The notes beneath the pieces are model-generated. The model saw only the letters and a program-made list of their open reading frames with translations, made no database searches and was not told where the DNA came from. The position numbers were made by a program, and so were the translations under genes. From a virus (Duplodnaviria; Heunggongvirae; Uroviricota; Caudoviricetes), in the IMG/VR virus record IMGVR_UViG_2778261458_000002: a DNA stretch of 47,331 nt. One strand, written 5' to 3'. Position 1 is the stretch's first letter; every line of letters begins with the position of its first letter. Positions 4,318 through 47,331 of the stretch are shown piece by piece.

Positions 4318-6339
4318 GTGAGTAAATTATTATTTACGATGACTGACGCCGGGCGTCAGGAGTTGGTTAATGCCAACAAAACAGGAACAAATAAAGTTGA
4401 GATTGTTTCTGTTGGTTTAGGTAGTAGATATTATGTCACGTCAACCTCACAAACAAATATAACAGACGAAATAAAACGACTTACCACAATAGGTGGCAAA
4501 GTTGTTTCCCCTGATACAATTCATGTAACGGCGAAGGATGATAGTAAAGATGAGTATGTTGTCCATACAATAGGATTGTATACAAATAAGGGAACGTTGT
4601 TTGCTGTATACTCGCAAGAACAAGCAATAATAAATAAAGCATCATCTACTATTGCTTTAATATCAAGTGACATAGCAATCAAGACTCTTGATACTAAAAA
4701 TATTACATTTGGTGATATTGAGTTTATTAATCCTCCCGCAACCGAAACTGTTGTTGGGGTAGCAAGATTTGCCAATGAACAAGAAATTGATGCAGGTACA
4801 GATGATTCCCTTGCTGTTTCAGCAAAGCGGCTTAAGCAAGCCATTGTGAAACATGAGCAATCACGTAATCATCCCGATGCAACTTTAACCTCAAAAGGCT
4901 TTGTTCAACTTAGCAGCGCCACCAATAGAACGTCTGAAACGCTTGCTGCGACGCCTAAGGCTGTTAAGGCAGCATATGACCTGGCTAATGGCAAATACAC
5001 CGCACAGGACGCTACTACAGCGCGAAAAGGGATTGTTCAGCTCAGTAGTGCCACTAACAGCACGTCTGAAGTGCTGGCCGCCACACCGAAAGCTGTCAAG
5101 GCTGCATATGACCTGGCTAACGGGAAGTATACAGCCCAGGATGCAACCACGGCTCAAAAAGGGATAGTTCAGCTCAGTAGCGACACCAACAGCACTTCTG
5201 AAACATTAGCTGCAACACCAAAAGCGGTTAAAGCTGCATACGATCTAGCAGCCGGAAAGGCACCATCCAGTCATACACATCCCTGGAATCAGATCACTGG
5301 TGTACCAACAGCTTCATTGACAGCGAAAGGCATCACTCAGCTCAGTAGTGCCACTAACAGCACGTCTGAAGTGCTGGCCGCCACACCGAAAGCTGTCAAG
5401 GCTGCATATGACCTGGCTAACGGGAAGTATACAGCCCAGGATGCAACCACGGCTCAAAAAGGGATAGTTCAGCTCAGTAGCGACACCAACAGCACTTCTG
5501 AAACATTAGCTGCAACACCAAAAGCGGTTAAAGCTGCATACGATCTAGCAGCCGGAAAGGCACCATCCAGTCATACACATCCCTGGAATCAGATCACTGG
5601 TGTACCAACAGCTTCATTGACAGCGAAAGGCATCACTCAGCTCAGTAGTGCCACTAACAGCACGTCTGAAGTGCTGGCCGCCACACCGAAAGCTGTCAAG
5701 GCTGCATATGATTTGGCTAATGGAAAGCAAGCGGCAGACGCTACGCTCACTGCTCTAGCGGCACTAGCTACAGCAGCAGATAAACTCCCTTATTTCACAG
5801 GTGTTGATCGTGCCGCGTTAACTGCATTGACAAGTGTTGGACGCGCCATTCTTGGTAAGACCAGTATTCAGAGCGTTCTTGATTACCTTGGTTTGGGAGA
5901 AGGCTCTGCATTACCTGTTGGTGTCCCTGTTCCGTGGCCTTCAGCTACGCCGCCAACAGGCTGGCTGAAATGCAATGGCGCTGCCTTTGATAAGGTTAAA
6001 TATCCCCGTCTTGCTACAGCATATCCATCAGGGAAACTACCTGATCTCCGCGGTGAGTTTATTCGTGGCTGGGATGATGGGCGCGGCATTGATACAGGGC
6101 GTGCTTTATTGAGTATTCAGAGTGATGAAGTCAGAAAGCTCGCATTAAAATACTGGGGGCCAGCTTCAAACAGTTCACCATCAAAAACATTTGCACTCAG
6201 CGACAGTGCCGGTGGCGGGTTGTACACGGATGGAATAAGTCAGGCAAGCGGTGGGATTATCAACGCTTTTCAGCTCCCTGGCGGTAACGAAACCCGCCCA
6301 CGAAATGTTGCATTTAACTATATCGTGAGGGCTGCATAA
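4318..6339 (+). CDS. tail fibre protein with tandem fibre repeats; constant part plus currently expressed variable C-terminal segment (Sv)
   Basis: 673-aa ORF; repeated 40-aa units (GIVQLSSATNSTSEVLAATPKAVKAAYDLA...); C-terminal collar-like receptor-binding domain; the inversion crossover site lies inside the gene at about 5877-5902. Confidence 0.85.
   Translation: MSKLLFTMTDAGRQELVNANKTGTNKVEIVSVGLGSRYYVTSTSQTNITDEIKRLTTIGGKVVSPDTIHVTAKDDSKDEYVVHTIGLYTNKGTLFAVYSQEQAIINKASSTIALISSDIAIKTLDTKNITFGDIEFINPPATETVVGVARFANEQEIDAGTDDSLAVSAKRLKQAIVKHEQSRNHPDATLTSKGFVQLSSATNRTSETLAATPKAVKAAYDLANGKYTAQDATTARKGIVQLSSATNSTSEVLAATPKAVKAAYDLANGKYTAQDATTAQKGIVQLSSDTNSTSETLAATPKAVKAAYDLAAGKAPSSHTHPWNQITGVPTASLTAKGITQLSSATNSTSEVLAATPKAVKAAYDLANGKYTAQDATTAQKGIVQLSSDTNSTSETLAATPKAVKAAYDLAAGKAPSSHTHPWNQITGVPTASLTAKGITQLSSATNSTSEVLAATPKAVKAAYDLANGKQAADATLTALAALATAADKLPYFTGVDRAALTALTSVGRAILGKTSIQSVLDYLGLGEGSALPVGVPVPWPSATPPTGWLKCNGAAFDKVKYPRLATAYPSGKLPDLRGEFIRGWDDGRGIDTGRALLSIQSDEVRKLALKYWGPASNSSPSKTFALSDSAGGGLYTDGISQASGGIINAFQLPGGNETRPRNVAFNYIVRAA
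5041..5711 (+). repeat. perfect 300-bp tandem duplication (2 full copies 5041-5340 and 5341-5640 plus 71-bp third partial copy) inside tail-fibre gene
   Basis: Lines 5041-5340 and 5341-5640 are base-for-base identical; 5641-5711 repeats the first 71 bp; in-frame (100 codons per unit). Confidence 0.9.
5877..5902 (-). other. inversion crossover site (left), Gin/Hin/Cin-type 26-bp site
   Basis: Reverse complement reads TTCTCCCAAACC-AA-GGTAATCAAGAA, resembling hix/gix-type sites; 15-nt core TTGGTTTGGGAGAAG is inverted-repeated at 7736-7750. Confidence 0.55.
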
Positions 6340-6941
6340 TGGATAATGCTGTATTAAATAGCGAGTTTATTGCCACGAAGGCGGGGAATATTACCGTCTA
6401 TAACTATGATAGTGAAACACGGGAATATATTTCCACATCAACTGAATATCTTGCTGTGGGGGTCGGTATTCCAGCATGTTCCTGTCTTGATGCACCTGGC
6501 ATACATAAGGTTGGTTATGCAATCTGTCGTTCTGTGAATTTAAATTCATGGAAATATGTGCCAGACCATCGCGGTGAAATCGTCTATAGCACAGAAACAG
6601 GAGAATCAAAAGAAATCACAGCTCCGGGTGATTACCCTGAAAATACAACCACTATCGCCCCTTTATCTCCATACGATAAATGGGATGGTGAGAAATGGGT
6701 GACCGATACTGAGGCACAGCATAGCGCCGCAGTCGAAGCGGCAGAAGCACAGCGCCAGTCACTGATTGATGCTGCTATGGCTTCCATCAGTCTGATTCAG
6801 CTGAAATTGCAGGCCGGACGTAAACTGACGCAGGCAGAAACAACCCGCCTTAACGCTGTGCTGGATTACATTGACGCGGTGACGGCAACAGATACCAGCA
6901 CCGCGCCGGATGTCATCTGGCCTGAACTGCCGGAGGCGTAG
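6339..6941 (+). CDS. tail fibre assembly protein (Tfa)
   Basis: 200-aa ORF with C-terminal LDYIDAVTATDTSTAPDVIWPELP motif characteristic of Tfa chaperones; start overlaps fibre stop. Confidence 0.75.
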   Translation: MDNAVLNSEFIATKAGNITVYNYDSETREYISTSTEYLAVGVGIPACSCLDAPGIHKVGYAICRSVNLNSWKYVPDHRGEIVYSTETGESKEITAPGDYPENTTTIAPLSPYDKWDGEKWVTDTEAQHSAAVEAAEAQRQSLIDAAMASISLIQLKLQAGRKLTQAETTRLNAVLDYIDAVTATDTSTAPDVIWPELPEA

Positions 6942-7365
6942 GCCATTCAATATCTGGCGCACCGGAAGTATCGACCAGTTCCAGTGCGTCCAGATAATCC
7001 AGCCACAGATTATATTGCGCCAGTTCCTCGCCTTTCAGACGACCAATAGCCGCTTTACCAGGCCATTGTTTACTGTTCATATAATCGTTGGCCTGATTAA
7101 TTAGTAGCTGTCTTTCTGATTCAGTAATTTCAATAAGTTCTTCATGCGTGGGTGGAGGAATATCTGCCCACGCAGGCAGCCCATCACCTCCGGCAATACG
7201 GATTTTTCCTTGTGGCGGTTCAGCCATAAATTCACTGATAATATTTTGATTCACCTCTTTAGCATCTGATAAATCCCATCCCTCTGATTTATATTTATCA
7301 ATCATATCCACAGGGAAAAAAGCATTATGCCTTGCGCTATAAACATATTCGTTCATATAAATCAC
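6913..7365 (-). CDS. alternative tail fibre assembly protein (Tfa')
   Basis: 150-aa minus-strand ORF with the same C-terminal Tfa motif (WLDYLDALELVDTSGAPDIEWPTPP); convergent and 3'-overlapping with tfa. Confidence 0.7.
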   Translation of the reverse strand: MIYMNEYVYSARHNAFFPVDMIDKYKSEGWDLSDAKEVNQNIISEFMAEPPQGKIRIAGGDGLPAWADIPPPTHEELIEITESERQLLINQANDYMNSKQWPGKAAIGRLKGEELAQYNLWLDYLDALELVDTSGAPDIEWPTPPAVQAR

Positions 7366-7376
7366 CCTTAATAAAA

Positions 7377-7745
7377 TTACTCACCAACAGCCCACCAACT
7401 GTAATTCATCGATACTGTGGAACTGGTTGATGCAGTTCTGTAAGCGGAATTAAAACCGGTTAATGTTGGACCTTCTGCGGACATAACGAATCCACGCCCT
7501 GCACCAAAAGGCGCACCGCCATCGCCAGAATGGGTAAGAATGGCGATATCCGCTTTTTTAGGGAAAGGGATAGGAAATGTAATCCTCATTGTTTGCGTCG
7601 ATAATTTCGGCATAGCCTCACCTCGACCATATTGCAGGATTTTCCCGTTGGGTAATTTCATCCATCCATCACCACTGGCAAAAGAGGCCATGTCCGGTAT
7701 CTGATTTTCCCCTGTCCCCACATTCCGTTTTGCCGCTTCTCCCAA
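7377..7745 (-). CDS. alternative tail-fibre C-terminal segment (Sv'), promoterless and start-less in this orientation
   Basis: Minus-strand reading frame runs from the right crossover site to a stop just before tfa'; after inversion it would fuse in frame to the fibre constant part (…DYLGLGE | AAKRNVGTG…). Confidence 0.55.
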
Positions 7746-7762
7746 ACCAACGTTTTAGTCTT
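7737..7762 (+). other. inversion crossover site (right)
   Basis: TTCTCCCAAACC-AA-CGTTTTAGTCTT, inverted copy of the site at 5877-5902, 55 bp upstream of the invertase start. Confidence 0.55.
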
Positions 7763-7816
7763 AATCCCTACCTATACCAACGATGTATTTTTAACTAAAC
7801 AAAGAGGTTGTTTTTC

Positions 7817-8371
7817 ATGCAAATTGGCTACATTCGTGTGTCAACAAATGACCAAAACACAGATTTACAAAGAAATGCACTGAACTGCGCAGGATGTGAA
7901 CTGATTTTTGAAGATAAAATATCCGGTGCTAAATCAAAACGACCAGGACTTGATAAGCTACTGAAGGTGTTACGACCGGGCGATACGGTTATTGTCTGGA
8001 AGCTGGACCGAATGGGGCGTTCTCTGATTCATCTTGTTGATTTACTTAACCATTTTTTATCAAACGACATTGAGTTTATTTCAATTACGGAAGGGATAAA
8101 AATCAGCACTTCAATTGGCCGCTTTGCCTACACGATGCTGAGTGCAGTCGCAGAGATGGAGCGGGAAAATATGATTGAAAGAACGCGTGCAGGATTGGCG
8201 GTGGCAAGGGCTAACGGCAGGATAGGAGGACGTCGCTCAAAACTGGCACCAGAGCAATGGGAACAGATCGGAAGGCTTATTGCGAATGGTGTTTCACGTA
8301 AGCGGATAGCGATTATCTTCGATGTTACCTTATCCACGCTTTACCGCAGGTTTCCGGCTGGGAATCATTGA
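7817..8371 (+). CDS. DNA invertase, small serine recombinase (Gin/Cin/Pin/Hin family)
   Basis: 184 aa from ATG 7817 (AAAGAGG RBS 9 nt upstream); MQIGYIRVSTNDQNTDLQRNAL with catalytic-Ser motif and C-terminal HTH (GVSRKRIAIIFDVTLSTLYRRF). Confidence 0.9.
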   Translation: MQIGYIRVSTNDQNTDLQRNALNCAGCELIFEDKISGAKSKRPGLDKLLKVLRPGDTVIVWKLDRMGRSLIHLVDLLNHFLSNDIEFISITEGIKISTSIGRFAYTMLSAVAEMERENMIERTRAGLAVARANGRIGGRRSKLAPEQWEQIGRLIANGVSRKRIAIIFDVTLSTLYRRFPAGNH

Positions 8372-8681: not shown

Positions 8682-9530
8682 ATGGATAGACCAATGCCGT
8701 CTCTACGTTCAGCTTACGTTTGTAATTTGTCGCCGGAGTTCCAGCCTCCAAAGCACCATACGCACAAGCTGCCGCTGGTGTTATCTGATGCTTTACAGCG
8801 CATTAATGGGCGTGATCTTACGTGTGAGGTTGCGTTCTACGTTAATCAACCGTCAGAGCGGAAGCGCCGGATAAACGAGCATCGTCGTCGGGCGATTAAT
8901 GCTGTGATCGCTGCGATTTTGCACCATGTAAACATCATTTCTAAGCGGGTTCTGGCTAGTGCTGAGGCGTTGGCTGATTTTTGCGGCCTGTCTACCGTAT
9001 CCGAAGCTGGGAACAAGTCTATAACGCGCTGTACAAGGGCGTTGTCGCAACTGAAAGCGTTAGGTTTTATTGATTATGAACGTCGCTGGGATCGGGTGAA
9101 TAAACAGTATTGGCCAGCGAAAATAGAGATTCGTGATCAACTGCTGGAAACCGTTGGTATTACTGAACAAGCATGGAGACGTGCGGTTAGCCAGAAACTT
9201 AATTACTTCAATGCGAAGAATAGCGAACGGCTTAAAAAAGCGATAACGGAGGCTGATTATAAGCGTATTGTTATTCAGGAGCAGATGGAGAATGTATGGC
9301 GTCAGAGGAAGACGGCCAGAGAGATAAAGGCAAAACAGAAAGCAGCGGAGAGAGCTGCGCGTCTTGTTCAGGAAAAGGGAGAGGCCGAACTTCGTCATCA
9401 AATCACTAGAGAGGTTAGCCAGGAATTTGCTGATGGCATGTATCCTGGTGCTGACCTTGCATATTTACGATCCCTCGTTGAGCAGCGTTATAACAGGCTA
9501 AGAAAGACCTGGAAATCACTCCAACATTAA
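8682..9530 (+). CDS. repA: plasmid replication initiator RepA (IncFII RepA1-like family)
   Basis: 282 aa from ATG 8682; AGNKSITRCTRALSQLKALGFIDYERRWD and RRRAINAVIAAILHH align with my recollection of R100/R1 RepA1; upstream in-frame extension to 8553 crosses the structured leader and is rejected. Confidence 0.75.
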   Translation: MDRPMPSLRSAYVCNLSPEFQPPKHHTHKLPLVLSDALQRINGRDLTCEVAFYVNQPSERKRRINEHRRRAINAVIAAILHHVNIISKRVLASAEALADFCGLSTVSEAGNKSITRCTRALSQLKALGFIDYERRWDRVNKQYWPAKIEIRDQLLETVGITEQAWRRAVSQKLNYFNAKNSERLKKAITEADYKRIVIQEQMENVWRQRKTAREIKAKQKAAERAARLVQEKGEAELRHQITREVSQEFADGMYPGADLAYLRSLVEQRYNRLRKTWKSLQH

Positions 9531-11682: not shown

Positions 11683-11801
11683 CTCATAGAATTATATAAT
11701 TATAGATTTATATAAAAAGTGCTTTACAGGTGGGAAAAAATTTCCTAAGGTTATGCCCGAAACCGAGCGATACCCGCCCTGGTTAAACCGGAGATAACCC
11801 G
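11683..11801 (+). promoter_or_regulatory. conserved promoter + 5' leader module, copy A
   Basis: AT-rich palindromic box, TTTACA-N16-TAAGGT, then conserved leader CCCGAAACCGAGCGATACCCGCCCTGGTTAAACCGGAGA ending at ATG 11802; near-identical copies at 21925 and 27617. Confidence 0.5.
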
Positions 11802-12182
11802 ATGAGCATGATTAAAATCCGTAAAAACGCTTTCCTTAAAATTCAAACTATCCTGGCTGGTTCTGTTGGCGTGATTTGCCGTTCTTCTTCAAGCCGCATT
11901 GATGACGGCTACGATGATGAGTATCGTGTGTCCTCGTGCGATGAGGCTTTAACCTGGCTGAAGGAGAATCAGGAACGTGCCCAGGTATATCTGGAAACAG
12001 AGAACGGCAACCAGATGCTGCGTATTAGCGGTCGTTATGGATTTGAAACTACATTCATTGCCTATTTTAATCAGGCTTACTTTGACAAGGAGCTGGCCTG
12101 GTACACTGATCGCATGAGCAAAAGCGAGCCAGCCCCGATTACACCGCCGAACAATAAACCATTTTTATTCCTCGTTAAGTAA
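11802..12182 (+). CDS. hypothetical protein
   Basis: 126-aa ORF beginning exactly at the end of conserved module A. Confidence 0.5.
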   Translation: MSMIKIRKNAFLKIQTILAGSVGVICRSSSSRIDDGYDDEYRVSSCDEALTWLKENQERAQVYLETENGNQMLRISGRYGFETTFIAYFNQAYFDKELAWYTDRMSKSEPAPITPPNNKPFLFLVK

Positions 12183-15189: not shown

Positions 15190-15540
15190 AGTTCCCTTAA
15201 AGGTTAAGGATACTCACCACCGTCTGGTTCCAATCATTGGGTGGTGAGACGTACAGGGTTGGAACTACCGGTCACCATGGAATCCGGCGAGTCTTACGAC
15301 TCCCCCGCACGCCCCACCATAATTTGGGTGTAGCAGTGCTTTACGCATAAAAAACCGCTAACGCGGTATGCGCCATGATGATTATCGGGGTTCCAATCCC
15401 GACCGTAGATTTTGCTACGGCTCGGAAAGTGTCCACCAATGGCGCATTCATGTCAATACGGCGAGATTTTAACAGAGACAACCACATAGCGTGGGTTTGA
15501 AAAACGGAATTTTCTGTTCATTAAGCGCATGATTTGACCA
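15190..15540 (-). ncRNA. structured leader / candidate c4-like antisense RNA of the ant operon
   Basis: 350-nt untranslated region with repeated GGTTCCAAYC segments (15227, 15386) and a complementary TTGGAAC segment (15259), plus a CTCACCACC...GGTGGTGAG stem; boundaries unknown. Confidence 0.3.
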
Positions 15541-16296: not shown

Positions 16297-16733
16297 TGAG
16301 TGAAGAAACAAAAAAACCGCCCTATTGAGGACGGTTCTTTCGTGCTGATCGGATTCGCGGTCCTTTCAGCATTACGTTGTTGTATAAACAACCACGCAAG
16401 CACAAGCAGCAAGTTGATTTTACCCAAAAGGTAATAATAGTCCACTATTATGCTTCAAAAAATTGTGGTTCTTGTTGTGTCTGCAAACTCACAGATTGTG
16501 GGTAGGTTACTGATTTTGTGAAAATAAACTGGTTTTTTCGTTTAATTTATTTCCTATTACTAATCTTAAAATAATCGTAAAATACCTGTGGACCTTCCCG
16601 CCGATTCGCACCCGGGCACCGACTTTAGGGGAGGATTCTCCGTTGCCGTACATGCAAGCACAAGCAGCCGTGCTTGCTCTCGCGTTGTTTTCGTCGGTGG
16701 GGATGCCGTGAAACGGCCTGTAAGGGCCATACA

Positions 16734-16856
16734 ATGAAAAAATACTGTATGTGTATTTTTATCGTTGTTACTGGGGCTTTGTTTACGCCACATGGGGAGG
16801 GTTGGAAGATTACTGATAACGCTCTGAATGTGACGATAAACATTAGCAGCAAGTAG
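16734..16856 (+). CDS. small hydrophobic peptide (40 aa), speculative
   Basis: MKKYCMCIFIVVTGALFTPHG... preceded by a long hairpin-rich leader and followed by a strong terminator; no Hok signature. Confidence 0.25.
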   Translation: MKKYCMCIFIVVTGALFTPHGEGWKITDNALNVTINISSK

Positions 16857-16862
16857 CGATTA

Positions 16863-16884
16863 GGCCCCTTCGGGGGCCTTTTTT
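16863..16884 (+). terminator. intrinsic terminator
   Basis: GGCCCC-TTCG-GGGGCC hairpin followed by TTTTTT. Confidence 0.7.
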
Positions 16885-21924: not shown

Positions 21925-22041
21925 ATCTATAAATATATAATTATAGATTTATATAAAAAGTGCTTTACAGGTGGGAAAAAATTTCCTAAGGTTATACCCG
22001 AAACCGAGCGATACCCGCCCTGGTTAAACCGGAGAAATCTG
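21925..22041 (+). promoter_or_regulatory. conserved promoter + 5' leader module, copy B
   Basis: Near-identical to 11683-11801 and 27617-27730; ends at ATG 22042. Confidence 0.5.
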
Positions 22042-23109
22042 ATGAATAAACAAGTAATTATTTCTGACTGGATCAACAACCCTAACAGCCTGTTAAGCAC
22101 TGATACTGGCTACCTATTACGCCATGTTAATGGTCGTATGGTCAAAAGCGATGAGCACGAAACCTTTTTCTTTGTTGAAGACGATGGGCGCATCTATGAG
22201 GATGGTTACTCTTATGAAGCCCAAACTGGTTGTATCCCTGCGGAGCTGGTGGACGTAACAGAAGATCTGCGCAAAGCATGGCTTGAACAGCAGCAGCGCG
22301 GAGATGATTACGTAAACACCTATCAGGAACGCCAGAACGCGCGTCTTGCCCGATATATTGCTCGTGCAGAAAAAGCCAGAAAAGAAGGTGCGGTAGCGCA
22401 TAAGCGAGCGCATGACCTGTTGGATGTGATCCCGTTAGGCCAGCCGATTTTAGTTGACCATTATAGCGCGAAAGGCCATCGCCGCCGTTTGTCTAAAGCT
22501 GATGCGTTATTCAGAAAAGCGTTTGTTGAATGCGAAAGTAAAGCATCACACTACGAGAGCAAAGCCGCAGGTGTTGGTCGTAATGGAATTTCGTCTGATG
22601 ATCCTGATGCGCTATTTAAGTTGCTTCGTAAGCTGCAAGGCTGCATGAAGTCACACGTCAAAATGAAGGCCGCAAATAAGGCCATTCGCAAATACAAAAA
22701 AGACCAATTACAGCAGCTTTCTGCATTAATCGATCTCAGGTTTACAGAAAGCGAAGCCAAAGAGTTACTGGCCGGAGATTTTTGTGGGCGCATCGGATTC
22801 CCTTCATACGCACTGAGCAACAATAACGCCGAGATCAAACGACTACAGAGCCGTATTAAGGAGCTTGAATCGGTCAAGTCTGTAACAGGAGCACAGCGCG
22901 AAGAATACGACGACTTTTCTATGGAGATAGATCCAGAGGATAACCGCATCCTGTTTTATTTCCCTGGCAAACCAGAGGCAAACATTCGTTCGCTGCTTAA
23001 ATCACGCGCCTTTAAGTGGAGTCCAACCCGTAATGCATGGGTTCGCAAGATTACTCCAAACGCCCTGGCTGATGCCCGATATCTAAAAGAATCGCTATTG
23101 AAAGCCTGA
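22042..23109 (+). CDS. hypothetical protein (DUF3560-like)
   Basis: 355-aa ORF starting at end of module B; HYSAKGHRRRLSKADALF and FKWSPTRNAWVRK segments. Confidence 0.45.
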   Translation: MNKQVIISDWINNPNSLLSTDTGYLLRHVNGRMVKSDEHETFFFVEDDGRIYEDGYSYEAQTGCIPAELVDVTEDLRKAWLEQQQRGDDYVNTYQERQNARLARYIARAEKARKEGAVAHKRAHDLLDVIPLGQPILVDHYSAKGHRRRLSKADALFRKAFVECESKASHYESKAAGVGRNGISSDDPDALFKLLRKLQGCMKSHVKMKAANKAIRKYKKDQLQQLSALIDLRFTESEAKELLAGDFCGRIGFPSYALSNNNAEIKRLQSRIKELESVKSVTGAQREEYDDFSMEIDPEDNRILFYFPGKPEANIRSLLKSRAFKWSPTRNAWVRKITPNALADARYLKESLLKA

Positions 23110-26668: not shown

Positions 26669-26744
26669 GGCCCCTTAGCTCAGTGGTTAGAGCAGGCGAC
26701 TCATAATCGCACGGTCATCGGTTCAAATCCGGTAGGGGCCACCA
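26669..26744 (+). tRNA. tRNA with CAU anticodon, ileX-like (tRNA-Ile2 lysidine type) or tRNA-Met
   Basis: 76 nt, GGCCCCTTAGCTCAGTGGTTAGAGCAGGCGACTCATAATCGC... with acceptor stem GGCCCCT/AGGGGCC and 3' CCA; 5' half matches my recollection of E. coli ileX. Confidence 0.85.
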
Positions 26745-27030: not shown

Positions 27031-27618
27031 ATGGAGGCAATTGCATTGTTTAATCTGATTTATGCAGATCCCCCCTGGGAATACAAAGACAAGTGTAAGG
27101 ATGGGAATCGTGGCGCTGGTTTTAAGTATCCAACGATGAAAGCTGAGGAGATTGCTCGTATTCCTGTCTGGCAGCTTGCTAATCCTGAATCGTGTTTGTT
27201 GGCCATGTGGTGGGTTCCGACTCAGCCAGAAGAAGCGTTGCTGGTGGTGAAAGCATGGGGATTCAGGCTTATGACCATGAAGGGCTTCACATGGAACAAA
27301 TGTGGTAGCCGACAGCCAGATAAGCTGGTGATGGGGATGGGGCATATGACTCGTGCGAACAGTGAAGATTGCTTGTTTGCGGTAAAAGGCAAACTGCCGA
27401 CCCGCCTTGATGCGGGAATCATTCAGTCGTTTACATCGCCTCGTCTGGAACATTCACGGAAGCCTGATGTGGTTCGTGACAAGCTGGTAAGACTGTTAGG
27501 TGATGTTCCTCGTATTGAGCTGTTTGCTCGCGGTGATTTACCTGATGGCTGGCATGGCTGGGGCAACCAGTGCAATGGAGGTATCCAATTGCATGATGCT
27601 CTCTGGCAAGTGGTATAG
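27031..27618 (+). CDS. DNA N6-adenine methyltransferase, MT-A70 family (orphan)
   Basis: 195-aa ORF with IYADPPWEY catalytic motif; no restriction endonuclease gene adjacent. Confidence 0.75.
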   Translation: MEAIALFNLIYADPPWEYKDKCKDGNRGAGFKYPTMKAEEIARIPVWQLANPESCLLAMWWVPTQPEEALLVVKAWGFRLMTMKGFTWNKCGSRQPDKLVMGMGHMTRANSEDCLFAVKGKLPTRLDAGIIQSFTSPRLEHSRKPDVVRDKLVRLLGDVPRIELFARGDLPDGWHGWGNQCNGGIQLHDALWQVV

Positions 27619-27730
27619 AATTATATAATTATAGATTTATATAAAAAGTACTTTACAGGTGAGAAAAAATTTCCTAAGGTTGTACCCGAAACCGAGCGAT
27701 ACCCGCCCTGGTTAAACCGGAGATAACCCG
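27617..27730 (+). promoter_or_regulatory. conserved promoter + 5' leader module, copy C
   Basis: Near-identical to copies A and B; ends at ATG 27731. Confidence 0.5.
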
Positions 27731-28000
27731 ATGAAAGTACAAGACCGTGAAGTAGTAAAAAACCTCCTGCAATACCTGACCTCAAAAAATCTGACGGGCA
27801 GCGTTGAGTTCCGTGAAGCGTTAAAACATTTCAACGTCACTACGGTTTATCGTTGGGAAAACCAACATTCTGAAAGACCGTATGTGGTGGATGTTTTTGC
27901 GCCTGATATTGAGTGCGGTTTTGAGCGCCATTCATTCAAAAAGAAACATTCCGCTGATGTTTTTTGTGAGGTTGTATGTGCGGCAGGAGATGATGAGTGA
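27731..28000 (+). CDS. hypothetical protein
   Basis: 89-aa ORF starting at end of module C. Confidence 0.45.
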   Translation: MKVQDREVVKNLLQYLTSKNLTGSVEFREALKHFNVTTVYRWENQHSERPYVVDVFAPDIECGFERHSFKKKHSADVFCEVVCAAGDDE

Positions 28001-47077: not shown

Positions 47078-47179
47078 TAGAACGGTTCAAGGGGACTCAT
47101 GGGATAGTATCGCGTTAAAGTTGTATGGTAATGAGTACCTGTCTTATCTTCTTATTGATGCTAATACTGAGCACTGAGA
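47078..47179 (+). pseudogene. truncated LysM-like tail protein X fragment
   Basis: Frame without start codon encodes RTVQGDSWDSIALKLYGNEYLSYLLIDAN then stop, resembling the N-terminal half of P2 gpX; an ATG at 47071 is in a different frame. Confidence 0.25.
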
Positions 47180-47331
47180 GATCCCCTCATAATTTCCCCA
47201 AAGCGTAACCATGTGTGAATAAATTTTGAGCTAGTAGGGTTGCAGCCACGAGTAAGTCTTCCCTTGTTATTGTGTAGCCAGAATGCCGCAAAACTTCCAT
47301 GCCTAAGCGAACTGTTGAGAGTACGTTTCGA

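Follow-up and report, generated by a model that had tools for sequence, protein, structure and literature searches.

The window, by which the whole stretch of 47,331 nucleotides analysed here is meant, is apparently a complete IncFII-RepA myovirus-like phage-plasmid of approximately 47 kb. With a probability of roughly 80% it carries an intact invertible host-range switch of the Din family (Gin/Cin/Pin/Hin type), of the subtype represented by the P segment of e14 with its pix sites. Swapping of the tail-fibre tip by a recombinase-flipped DNA segment, which alters attachment to the host, is a long-known phage device. New here is a transplanted switch in a family that otherwise has gix-type sites and other cassettes. 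A sequence-only reading had proposed an invertible tail-fibre segment with alternative receptor-binding modules, and this proposal is supported; all structural elements of such a segment are present and intact (Table 1).

Table 1. Features of the fibre-switch region, with positions in the window
Feature	Position	Strand	Basis or detail
Tail-fibre gene S as assembled, 673 aa	4318-6339	+	Phage_fiber_2 x6 (Pfam, E 1e-114), Collar
Sc, fibre constant part of S, fused to Sv	4318-5889	+	Part of the S ORF
Block differing from the phage-plasmid family, 2.65 kb	5237-7889		Comparison with relatives
Left crossover site, pix-type	5876-5901	-	Reads TTCTCCCAAACC-AA-GGTAATCAAGAA; core dinucleotide 5888-5889
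Invertible segment, ~1.86 kb between core dinucleotides	5888-7750		Homology ends and inversion in relatives
Sv, expressed receptor-binding module, tail-collar type	5890-6339	+	Pfam Collar
tfa, assembly chaperone for Sv, 200 aa, TfaE-like	6339-6941	+	Pfam Caudo_TAP, E 5e-33
tfa', chaperone for Sv', 147 aa, TfaP-like	6913-7356	-	ATG at 7356; Pfam Caudo_TAP, E 8e-31
Sv', silent alternative receptor-binding module, gp53-like C-terminal domain	7377-7748	-	Pfam Gp53-like_C, E 8e-13
Right crossover site	7737-7762	+	Reads TTCTCCCAAACC-AA-CGTTTTAGTCTT; core 7749-7750
DNA invertase, 184 aa, hybrid	7817-8371	+	Resolvase (Pfam, E 4e-44), HTH_7 (E 3e-13)
Putative Fis-dependent recombinational enhancer, gene nt 19-90	7835-7906	+	Homology to the annotated P1 cin enhancer

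Fibre modules and crossover sites

The arrangement proposed earlier, with Sv and tfa on the plus strand and tfa' and Sv' on the minus strand between the sites, agrees with the open reading frames and Pfam matches. Sv is related to the variable part of StfE (full-length identity of 55% to the product of the e14 stfE pseudogene), and the chaperone that follows it is 90.5% identical to TfaE of e14. The product of tfa', also called as 147 aa on the source contig, shows 54% identity to TfaP of e14, and the 3' end of its gene convergently overlaps tfa by 29 nt. Sv' lacks both its own constant region and, at the crossover, its own start codon; its frame runs open from the core to the stop codon. In-silico inversion at 5888-5889 / 7749-7750 confirmed that the Sv' frame fuses in phase to the constant region, as had been claimed, and yielded an open fibre frame of 647 aa in place of the 673-aa one. 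The two fibres have 528 N-terminal residues in common, ending ...DYLGLGE. The inversion exchanges two C-terminal fibre modules, both in phase and both paired with a Caudo_TAP chaperone of their own. Sv' and tfa' are intact in all 4 of the contigs that carry them.

Both 26-bp sites contain TTCTCCCAAACC-AA and are inverted relative to each other; the central AA is the same in both and is read in the same sense. The left site, in full TTCTCCCAAACCAAGGTAATCAAGAA on the minus strand, sits within the S reading frame and encodes ...LGLGE, and the right site is in full TTCTCCCAAACCAACGTTTTAGTCTT. The sequence-only reading had placed the right site exactly and the left one a single base off, at 5877-5902; it had called them hix/gix-like, of which the invertible-segment interpretation stands while the site type is e14 pix, not hix or gix. 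The 14-mer TTCTCCCAAACCAA, common to both sites, occurs twice in the window, once per strand, and a search allowing up to 2 mismatches returned again just these two matches (chance expectation 0.61 for the window). A repeat search of the window recovered the pair as an 18-nt inverted repeat, 94% complementary. Scored against a generic Din-site consensus, the two sites are the top two 26-mers in the 47,331 bases (15/18 and 14/18), and the next-best score, 13, is at chance level. A multi-site arrangement like that of Min or a shufflon was rejected for the window, since just two sites exceed chance.

Pix-type repeats (TTGGTTTGGGAGAAGG / CCTTCTCCCAAACCAA) are present at the ends of the segment. 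The left 16-mer TTGGTTTGGGAGAAGG (5888-5903) equals the e14 repeat at 16/16 positions, and the right repeat GCTTCTCCCAAACCAA (7735-7750) matches the e14 repeat CCTTCTCCCAAACCAA at 15/16. Sequencing and qPCR have established that the e14 segment inverts at these repeats (PMC12529663). The inner half-site and core of the right site are identical to those of e14 pixR; its outer half is poor, AAGACTAAAACG matching the consensus TTNTCNNAAACC at 5 of the 9 specified positions. The left junction reads ...TTGATTACCTTGGTTTGGGAGAAGGCTCTGCATTACC in the native and ...TTGATTACCTTGGTTTGGGAGAAGCGGCAAAACGGAATG in the inverted orientation, the latter obtained in silico, and the right junctions corresponding to both orientations end ...CCAACGTTTTAGTCTTAATCC.

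Among known systems, the P segment of e14, a cryptic prophage of E. coli K-12 (pix sites, PinE, stfE/tfaE/tfaP/stfP), is like the window in the gene order Sv-tfa / tfa'-Sv', in the 29-nt chaperone overlap, in the GLGE encoded at the crossover and in both inner half-sites with the core TTCTCCCAAACC-AA. It is unlike the window in its outer half-sites and in its silent tip, Sv' being only 29% identical to the StfP tip. Moreover, e14 is a decayed prophage, whereas the switch of the window serves a full-length fibre of an apparently complete phage-plasmid. The Mu G segment (gix/Gin) and the P1 C segment (cix/Cin) likewise combine a constant part with two invertible tips and U/U'-type chaperones; in them, too, the invertase gene follows directly beyond the right site and contains the enhancer in its 5' end. 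However, Mu gix has the core GA and the inner half TTCCTGTAAACC, and the segments of Mu (3 kb) and P1 (4.2 kb) are longer than that of the window (1.86 kb).

The invertase and its putative enhancer

The invertase ORF is intact and begins just outside the right site, as had been noted earlier, with its ATG 54 nt past the end of the site rather than the 55 bp then given. The product is a small serine recombinase with the catalytic Ser and both Resolvase and HTH_7 domains. Its alignment with Gin, Pin and Cin covers the full length and shows the catalytic and DNA-binding motifs to be conserved (Ser9 in YIRVSTNDQ, KLDRMGRS, AEMERE, GRIGGRR and STLYR). Its best solved relative is Gin (PDB 3uj3, E 5e-69). 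It is 59% identical to Gin and to Cin each, and its body is about 55-62% identical to Gin, Pin and Cin. The first 25 residues are 92% identical to PinE and 60% to the enzyme of pESBL3215, whereas the remainder is 62% identical to PinE and, over residues 30-184, 98.7% to pESBL3215. With 66% identity to PinE overall, the enzyme is not of the PinE type and its body is that of the backbone-family enzyme. On these identities the invertase is a hybrid, with residues 1-29 Pin-like and apparently contributed by a transplanted block, and residues 30-184 belonging to the phage-plasmid backbone.

The region homologous to the P1 enhancer is 81% identical to cin, 86% to pinE and 74% to gin. It contains two Fis-consensus 15-mers (7839-7853 and 7887-7901) that match KNNYRNNWNNYRNNM, with centres 48 bp apart; this consensus and a 48-bp spacing of the two Fis sites are typical of din enhancers. 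The centre of the proximal 15-mer lies 96.5 bp from the centre of the right site, the same distance as in Mu and e14. The sequence-only reading had suggested looking for an enhancer near the start of the invertase gene, in its first ~150 bp, and by homology one is there. Fis dependence of the switch is presumed. Enhancer-dependent invertases conserve the equivalents of Hin Q151, R154 and L155 and carry basic residues at Hin 47, 48 and 51 (PMC3798978). In the present enzyme the former three are kept as WEQIGRLI, and two of the three helix-B positions are basic (K47, K50), the equivalent of Hin K47 being D46; the Asp at this position is common to the invertase and the backbone family. In a simple promoter scan, with totals at the level of chance, the interval from the right site to the invertase ATG gave no sigma-70-like candidate.

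The switch is envisaged to operate as follows. The fibre gene would be transcribed from upstream as Sc-Sv-tfa. Invertase dimers would bind both 26-bp sites and, with host Fis on the enhancer in the 5' coding region of the invertase's own gene, would form an invertasome. The enzyme would then cut at the central AA/TT dinucleotide of each site, and a 180-degree rotation of the strands would flip the 1.86-kb segment, joining Sc in frame to Sv', followed by tfa'. Particles made in the two orientations would carry different tips, of the tail-collar and the gp53-like type, and are expected to differ in the receptors to which they adsorb. That the hybrid enzyme acts on these two sites, and that the two tips differ in receptor, is inferred from these features.

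Origin of the switch and its occurrence in other genomes

The phage-plasmid family to which the window belongs includes pESBL3215 (NZ_MW390530), pC161661-2 and Yersinia phage vB_YpM_44 (OR545055); in the window and the family alike, the invertible fibre region is placed between baseplate gene I and repA. Members of the family, ~47-49 kb in size, are widespread in Enterobacteriaceae. Phage vB_YpM_HQ103 was set aside as an unrelated 32-kb P2-like phage. The relatives L001-L003 and L012 match the window at 98-99% identity as far as 5101-5236 and from 7890 onwards, with no match between, and their sites are gix-type with the core GA. The three named members show the same backbone identity on both sides, but differ from the window in having gix-type sites (TTCCTGCAAACCGAGGTTTTTGCGAA), Mu/P1-like cassettes of ~2.95 kb, and another invertase N-terminus and enhancer region, in which the distance from the site to the proximal Fis-like 15-mer is 106.5 bp instead of 96.5 bp. 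The block that sets the window apart runs from the distal Sc through the two sites and the cassette they bracket to the invertase upstream region, the enhancer and the first ~29 invertase codons. From these comparisons, the whole switch appears to have been transplanted into the phage-plasmid from another phage lineage, an event that would have left the hybrid invertase gene. One end of the block may have recombined inside the fibre repeats, and the other in a conserved stretch of ~18 nt in the invertase gene right after the enhancer. The identical right-site 26-mer and its flank were found in a pattern scan of viral contigs in two IMG/VR contigs, L010 and L011, which are likely the donor lineage for the right flank; the two show no inversion difference between them.

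The cassette itself is present at ~98% identity in thousands of E. coli records, including those of O157:H7 and other prophages, and the limits of this homology (window 5884/5888 to 7750/7755) coincide exactly with the sites. Two otherwise collinear E. coli prophages, L008 and L009, which occupy the same chromosomal site and whose flanks are 99.97% and 98.9% identical, carry this cassette in opposite orientations, and it occurs next to pinE in either orientation (H1 versus H101). The backbone invertase, in turn, adjoins gix-type cassettes in both orientations among ~48-kb family members. The in-silico inverted junction was matched by CP057727 and NZ_CP141847 (98-99.9% over 100% of the query) and the native one by NZ_MW390530, NZ_CP139394, NZ_CP148365 and NZ_AP022818, these being comparisons with family members that carry gix-type cassettes, not with the exact element of the window. 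Constant region, cassette and invertase of the window together, in either orientation, were found in 0 records at ≥80% coverage in E. coli RefSeq, PLSDB and the phage collections. Exact-pattern scans of species-representative genomes gave no match to the left junction or to the right site with its flank, and a like scan of viral contigs gave none to the left junction. A preprint on an ST131 wound isolate was set aside, the fibre inversions there being in other prophages and not in this plasmid family.

Alternative explanations and significance

An unlikely alternative is a locked switch, complete but mismatched after the transplant, which inverts negligibly or never and leaves only the collar-type Sv fibre to be made. 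The hybrid invertase was found on 5 contigs, and in 4 of the 4 places shown Sv' adjoins it, a single orientation that would fit a locked switch, as would the unbroken assembly of the 47-kb source contig through both sites; four assemblies, with two or more of them practically identical, do not however suffice to show a bias. Strains carrying the plasmid are GCA_002463995.1, GCA_025337625.1, SRR6728001 and SRR21654206. The weak outer half-site on the right and the gix-type cognate sites of the backbone enzyme, with the core GA and not AA, also point to a mismatch, but the two sites have matching cores, as inversion requires. A locked switch would likewise fit the Asp at the Hin K47 equivalent; this residue is shared with backbone relatives whose cassettes occur in both orientations, and the silent Sv' and tfa' are wholly intact in all copies. 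Gin, Cin, Pin and Hin cross-complement on one another's sites. Tolerance of this kind extends to PinE, which inverts the Mu G segment and the Salmonella H segment, as cited in PMC12529663, and to PinQ, which is just 38% identical to PinE and inverts the e14 segment (PMC12529663).

Far less probable is inversion mainly in trans, by host-resident PinE, PinQ, PinR or P1/Mu-type enzymes and not by the hybrid of the plasmid. PinE, PinQ and PinR all invert the e14 segment, the dominant one being encoded elsewhere in the genome (PMC12529663), and the inner half-sites and core of the window are identical to those of e14; among 5,426 complete E. coli genomes, >3,200 contain a related cassette or invertase sequence. 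The invertase ORF next to the segment is nevertheless intact with all catalytic motifs, a putative cis enhancer lies at the canonical distance, and action in trans would add to the reading as a functional invertible switch rather than replace it. That the inverted repeat is a mere by-product of convergent fibre genes sharing the ...LGLGE motif, with no role in recombination, would fit its location in coding sequence and the same peptide from both genes, but is effectively refuted by Sv' without a start codon or constant region, the homology to thousands of cassettes that stops exactly at the repeat, the match to experimentally proven crossover sites (PMC12529663), the invertase gene with its putative enhancer 54 nt away, and relatives that differ by precise inversion at these points.

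Under the preferred reading of an intact, transplanted switch, the unit would have moved whole. The chances are about even that this holds together with its corollary: if the hybrid enzyme is active, the catalytic and DNA-binding body of divergent invertases would be freely interchangeable across site types, the system would be defined by its cis elements alone, and the conserved 5' end of din genes would be the joint at which host-range switches are swapped among P1-like, P2-like, e14-like and phage-plasmid lineages. The hybrid invertase is in this respect a natural experiment on the limits of mixing enzymes and sites in the Din family, and the understanding of the inversion mechanism is unchanged by the finding. 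For annotation, the silent Sv' should be called neither a separate gene nor a pseudogene, and both orientations have to be considered in predicting the host range of such plasmids. The switch would give a widespread phage-plasmid family two alternative adsorption specificities, and whole host-range switches, not just fibre tips, would be exchanged between unrelated temperate elements.

A probable invertible fibre segment and its crossover sites

Din-family invertases with invertible fibre segments have been known since the 1980s. The fibre region of the window is read as a switch of this type that is also currently active, with a probability of about 0.8; judged on architecture alone, a Din-type switch is more probable still. 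The silent variable part (Sv') can be read without interruption between the crossover and its stop codon, and inversion of 5888-7750 in silico yields a 647-aa fibre; this runs in frame into Sv', as the sequence-only reading had proposed. Native and inverted fibres have their first 528 residues in common, ending ...DYLGLGE. The sites, the gene content and the in-frame inverted fibre therefore confirm the invertible segment described in that reading. Its right site was placed exactly; its left site is present, although one base away from the 5877-5902 first assigned.

Genes, crossover sites and Fis-like sequences of the invertible region
Feature	Coordinates	Strand	Remarks
Fibre, 673 aa	4318-6339	+	Pfam Phage_fiber_2 repeats (six), Collar domain at C-terminus
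Chaperone tfa	6339-6941	+	Pfam Caudo_TAP
Chaperone tfa'	6913-7356	-	Pfam Caudo_TAP
Sv', without its own start codon	7377-7748	-	Pfam Gp53-like_C
Recombinase, 184 aa	7817-8371	+	Pfam Resolvase and HTH_7
Left site	5876-5901	-	TTCTCCCAAACCAAGGTAATCAAGAA on the minus strand
Right site	7737-7762	+	TTCTCCCAAACCAACGTTTTAGTCTT
Fis-consensus 15-mers (two)	7839-7853; 7887-7901		Match to the Fis consensus; centres 48 bp apart

The 14-mer shared by the two sites has one copy per strand in the 47,331 bases and no near-matches elsewhere in the window, and a repeat search of the window recovers the pair as an 18-nt inverted repeat (94% complementary). When scored against a generic Din-family consensus (TTNTCNNAAACCNNGGTTTNNGANAA), the sites are the top-scoring 26-mers of the window (15/18 and 14/18); other matches score 13/18, the level of shuffled sequence. 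In its outer half, the right site matches the consensus poorly (5/9 specified positions). A site identical to the right site is also present in two IMG/VR viral contigs, L010 and L011. The fibre constant region carries a 300-bp tandem duplication in perfect register (5026-5325 and 5326-5625, 99% identical), equal to 100 additional residues or ~2.3 Phage_fiber_2 repeat units (44/56 residues); the second copy is absent from family relatives.

Affinity to e14 and the hybrid invertase

Annotated or known sites of Mu, P1 and the E. coli K-12 prophage e14 were used for comparison. Both pix sites of e14 (pixL, read as TTCTCCCAAACCAAGGTTTTCGAGAG, and pixR, TTCTCCCAAACCAACGTTTATGAAAA) are identical to the inner half-sites and core of the window (TTCTCCCAAACC-AA), whereas gix of Mu (TTCCTGTAAACC-GA) and cix of P1 differ. 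The sites, called hix/gix-like in the sequence-only reading, are of the pix type. The e14 repeats TTGGTTTGGGAGAAGG and CCTTCTCCCAAACCAA were identified as inversion points by genome sequencing and qPCR in a 2025 study, in which PinE, PinQ and PinR alike inverted the segment (PMC12529663). The former is found in the window as an exact 16-mer at 5888-5903 and the latter is matched at 15/16. TfaE is 90.5% identical to tfa, TfaP 54% to tfa', the StfE tip 55% to the current variable part (Sv) and the StfP tip 29% to Sv'; the convergent 29-nt overlap of the chaperone genes is also the same. The window cassette is 98% identical to cassettes of many E. coli prophages. Its sites are of the proven e14 type.

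Identity between the window and its backbone relatives is 98-99% as far as ~5101-5236, is lost over the following stretch and resumes at 7890; these phage-plasmids have gix-type sites and longer, Mu/P1-like cassettes of their own. At the right-hand joint, identity to L010 extends from the right site to about nt 86 of the invertase gene, and identity to the backbone relative pESBL3215 from 7890 onward, the two tracts overlapping in GATTTTTGAAGATAAAAT. Because the joint falls inside the gene, the invertase is a hybrid, Pin-like over residues 1-29 (the first 25 are 92% identical to PinE versus 60% to the backbone) and of backbone origin over residues 30-184 (98.7%, versus 62% to PinE). The transplanted block comprises all cis-acting parts (both sites and the putative enhancer) and both fibre tips; the trans-acting invertase body was retained from the backbone. 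L010 (IMGVR_UViG_3300029461_000001, 72 kb), which matches the right flank most closely, carries pix-type sites at three positions instead of two, 3515(-), 5071(+) and 5510(+); this points to a Min/p15B-like multi-inversion region.

Putative enhancer and evidence for inversion of related segments

The invertase can be aligned over its full length with Gin, PinE and Cin, with catalytic and DNA-binding motifs kept, and its closest solved structure is Gin. In the P1 record the cin enhancer is annotated at gene nt 19-90; identities of the window gene over this stretch are 81% (cin), 86% (pinE) and 74% (gin). The Fis consensus is (G/T)NNYRNNWNNYRNN(C/A). The proximal Fis-like 15-mer lies 96.5 bp from the right-site centre, the same as in Mu and e14 and consistent with the ~100 bp given for Hin (PMC3798978). 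Equivalents of Hin Q151, R154 and L155, which are specific to enhancer-dependent invertases (PMC3798978), are all present; of the three basic helix-B positions also listed there, one is Asp in the window. Homology to the cin enhancer and the spaced 15-mers make the proposed search of the first ~150 bp of the gene positive at the sequence level, and a Fis-dependent enhancer is predicted in its 5' end. A simple scan from the right site to the ATG found no invertase promoter. In pESBL3215 (right site 8874-8899, gene start 8964) the distance from the right-site centre to the proximal Fis-like 15-mer is 106.5 bp, so that the backbone family differs from Mu, e14 and the window by about one helical turn.

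In two chicken E. coli isolates (L008 and L009) one prophage occupies one chromosomal site, its flanks being 99.97% and 98.9% identical between the isolates, and the two differ by a precise inversion of the cassette at the pix sites; this cassette is 98% identical to that of the window. The window's cassette also adjoins pinE in opposite orientations in the records H1 and H101. For the backbone, the pESBL3215 cassette was inverted in silico and both left junctions were searched for. The inverted junction is intact in CP057727 (99.9%) and NZ_CP141847 (98.3%), and the native one is present in NZ_MW390530, NZ_CP139394, NZ_CP148365 and NZ_AP022818, all six being family members of ~46-49 kb. The enzyme body used in the window therefore has a natural record of activity, but on gix-type sites. 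Five contigs on record carry the exact hybrid invertase, and in all four places listed Sv' adjoins it. This is also the arrangement in the window, whose source contig was assembled unbroken across both sites. These four places are the sole direct evidence on the exact element, and switching is not seen in them; this is weak evidence, because at least two are essentially one sequence. A switch complete in structure but no longer inverting is judged unlikely, and the active switch is preferred. PLSDB 'circular plasmids' of 1.8-1.9 kb (NZ_CP148551-NZ_CP148556, including L013, NZ_CP148552.1, and NZ_CP104636) consist only of the interior of such a segment, cut off precisely at the inverted repeats and lacking a crossover site; most likely they arose as assembly-graph artefacts from mixed-orientation cultures and are not true replicons.

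Phage-plasmid context and significance

The window sequence is the entire contig NTNJ01000033.1 (47,332 bp) of GCA_002463995.1, and 87% of it is collinear with the 49-kb pESBL3215. Virion and lysis genes (terminase, portal, capsid, contractile tail, P2-like baseplate V/W/J/I) occur together with plasmid-maintenance genes (ParA/ParB, IncFII-type RepA, a RelE/HigB-type toxin-antitoxin pair), and the element is therefore a phage-plasmid. Close relatives number hundreds in plasmid records of Escherichia, Klebsiella and Shigella, and include the Yersinia phages vB_YpM_41 and vB_YpM_44. Three copies of a 120-nt direct repeat (11686-11805, 21927-22046 and 27615-27734; 90-97% identical) are scattered across the plasmid-maintenance and early region. 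Rfam matches above the gathering score are a C4 antisense RNA (P1/P7-type immunity RNA), isrK, ryfA and a tRNA, at 15237-15324 (-), 15348-15421 (-), 16588-16884 (+) and 26669-26741 (+). About 233 bases across the window ends (47175-47331 plus 1-76) have no counterpart in pESBL3215, where the matches on either side meet at the tape-measure gene's end and overlap by 10 nt.

The combination of a phage-plasmid backbone, a transplanted pix-type switch and a hybrid invertase was absent from the collections searched (E. coli RefSeq, PLSDB and phage). The chances are about even that the hybrid works and that the conserved 5' end of din genes is a routine joint for such exchange; if so, entire host-range switches would be swapped between lineages through this short stretch.
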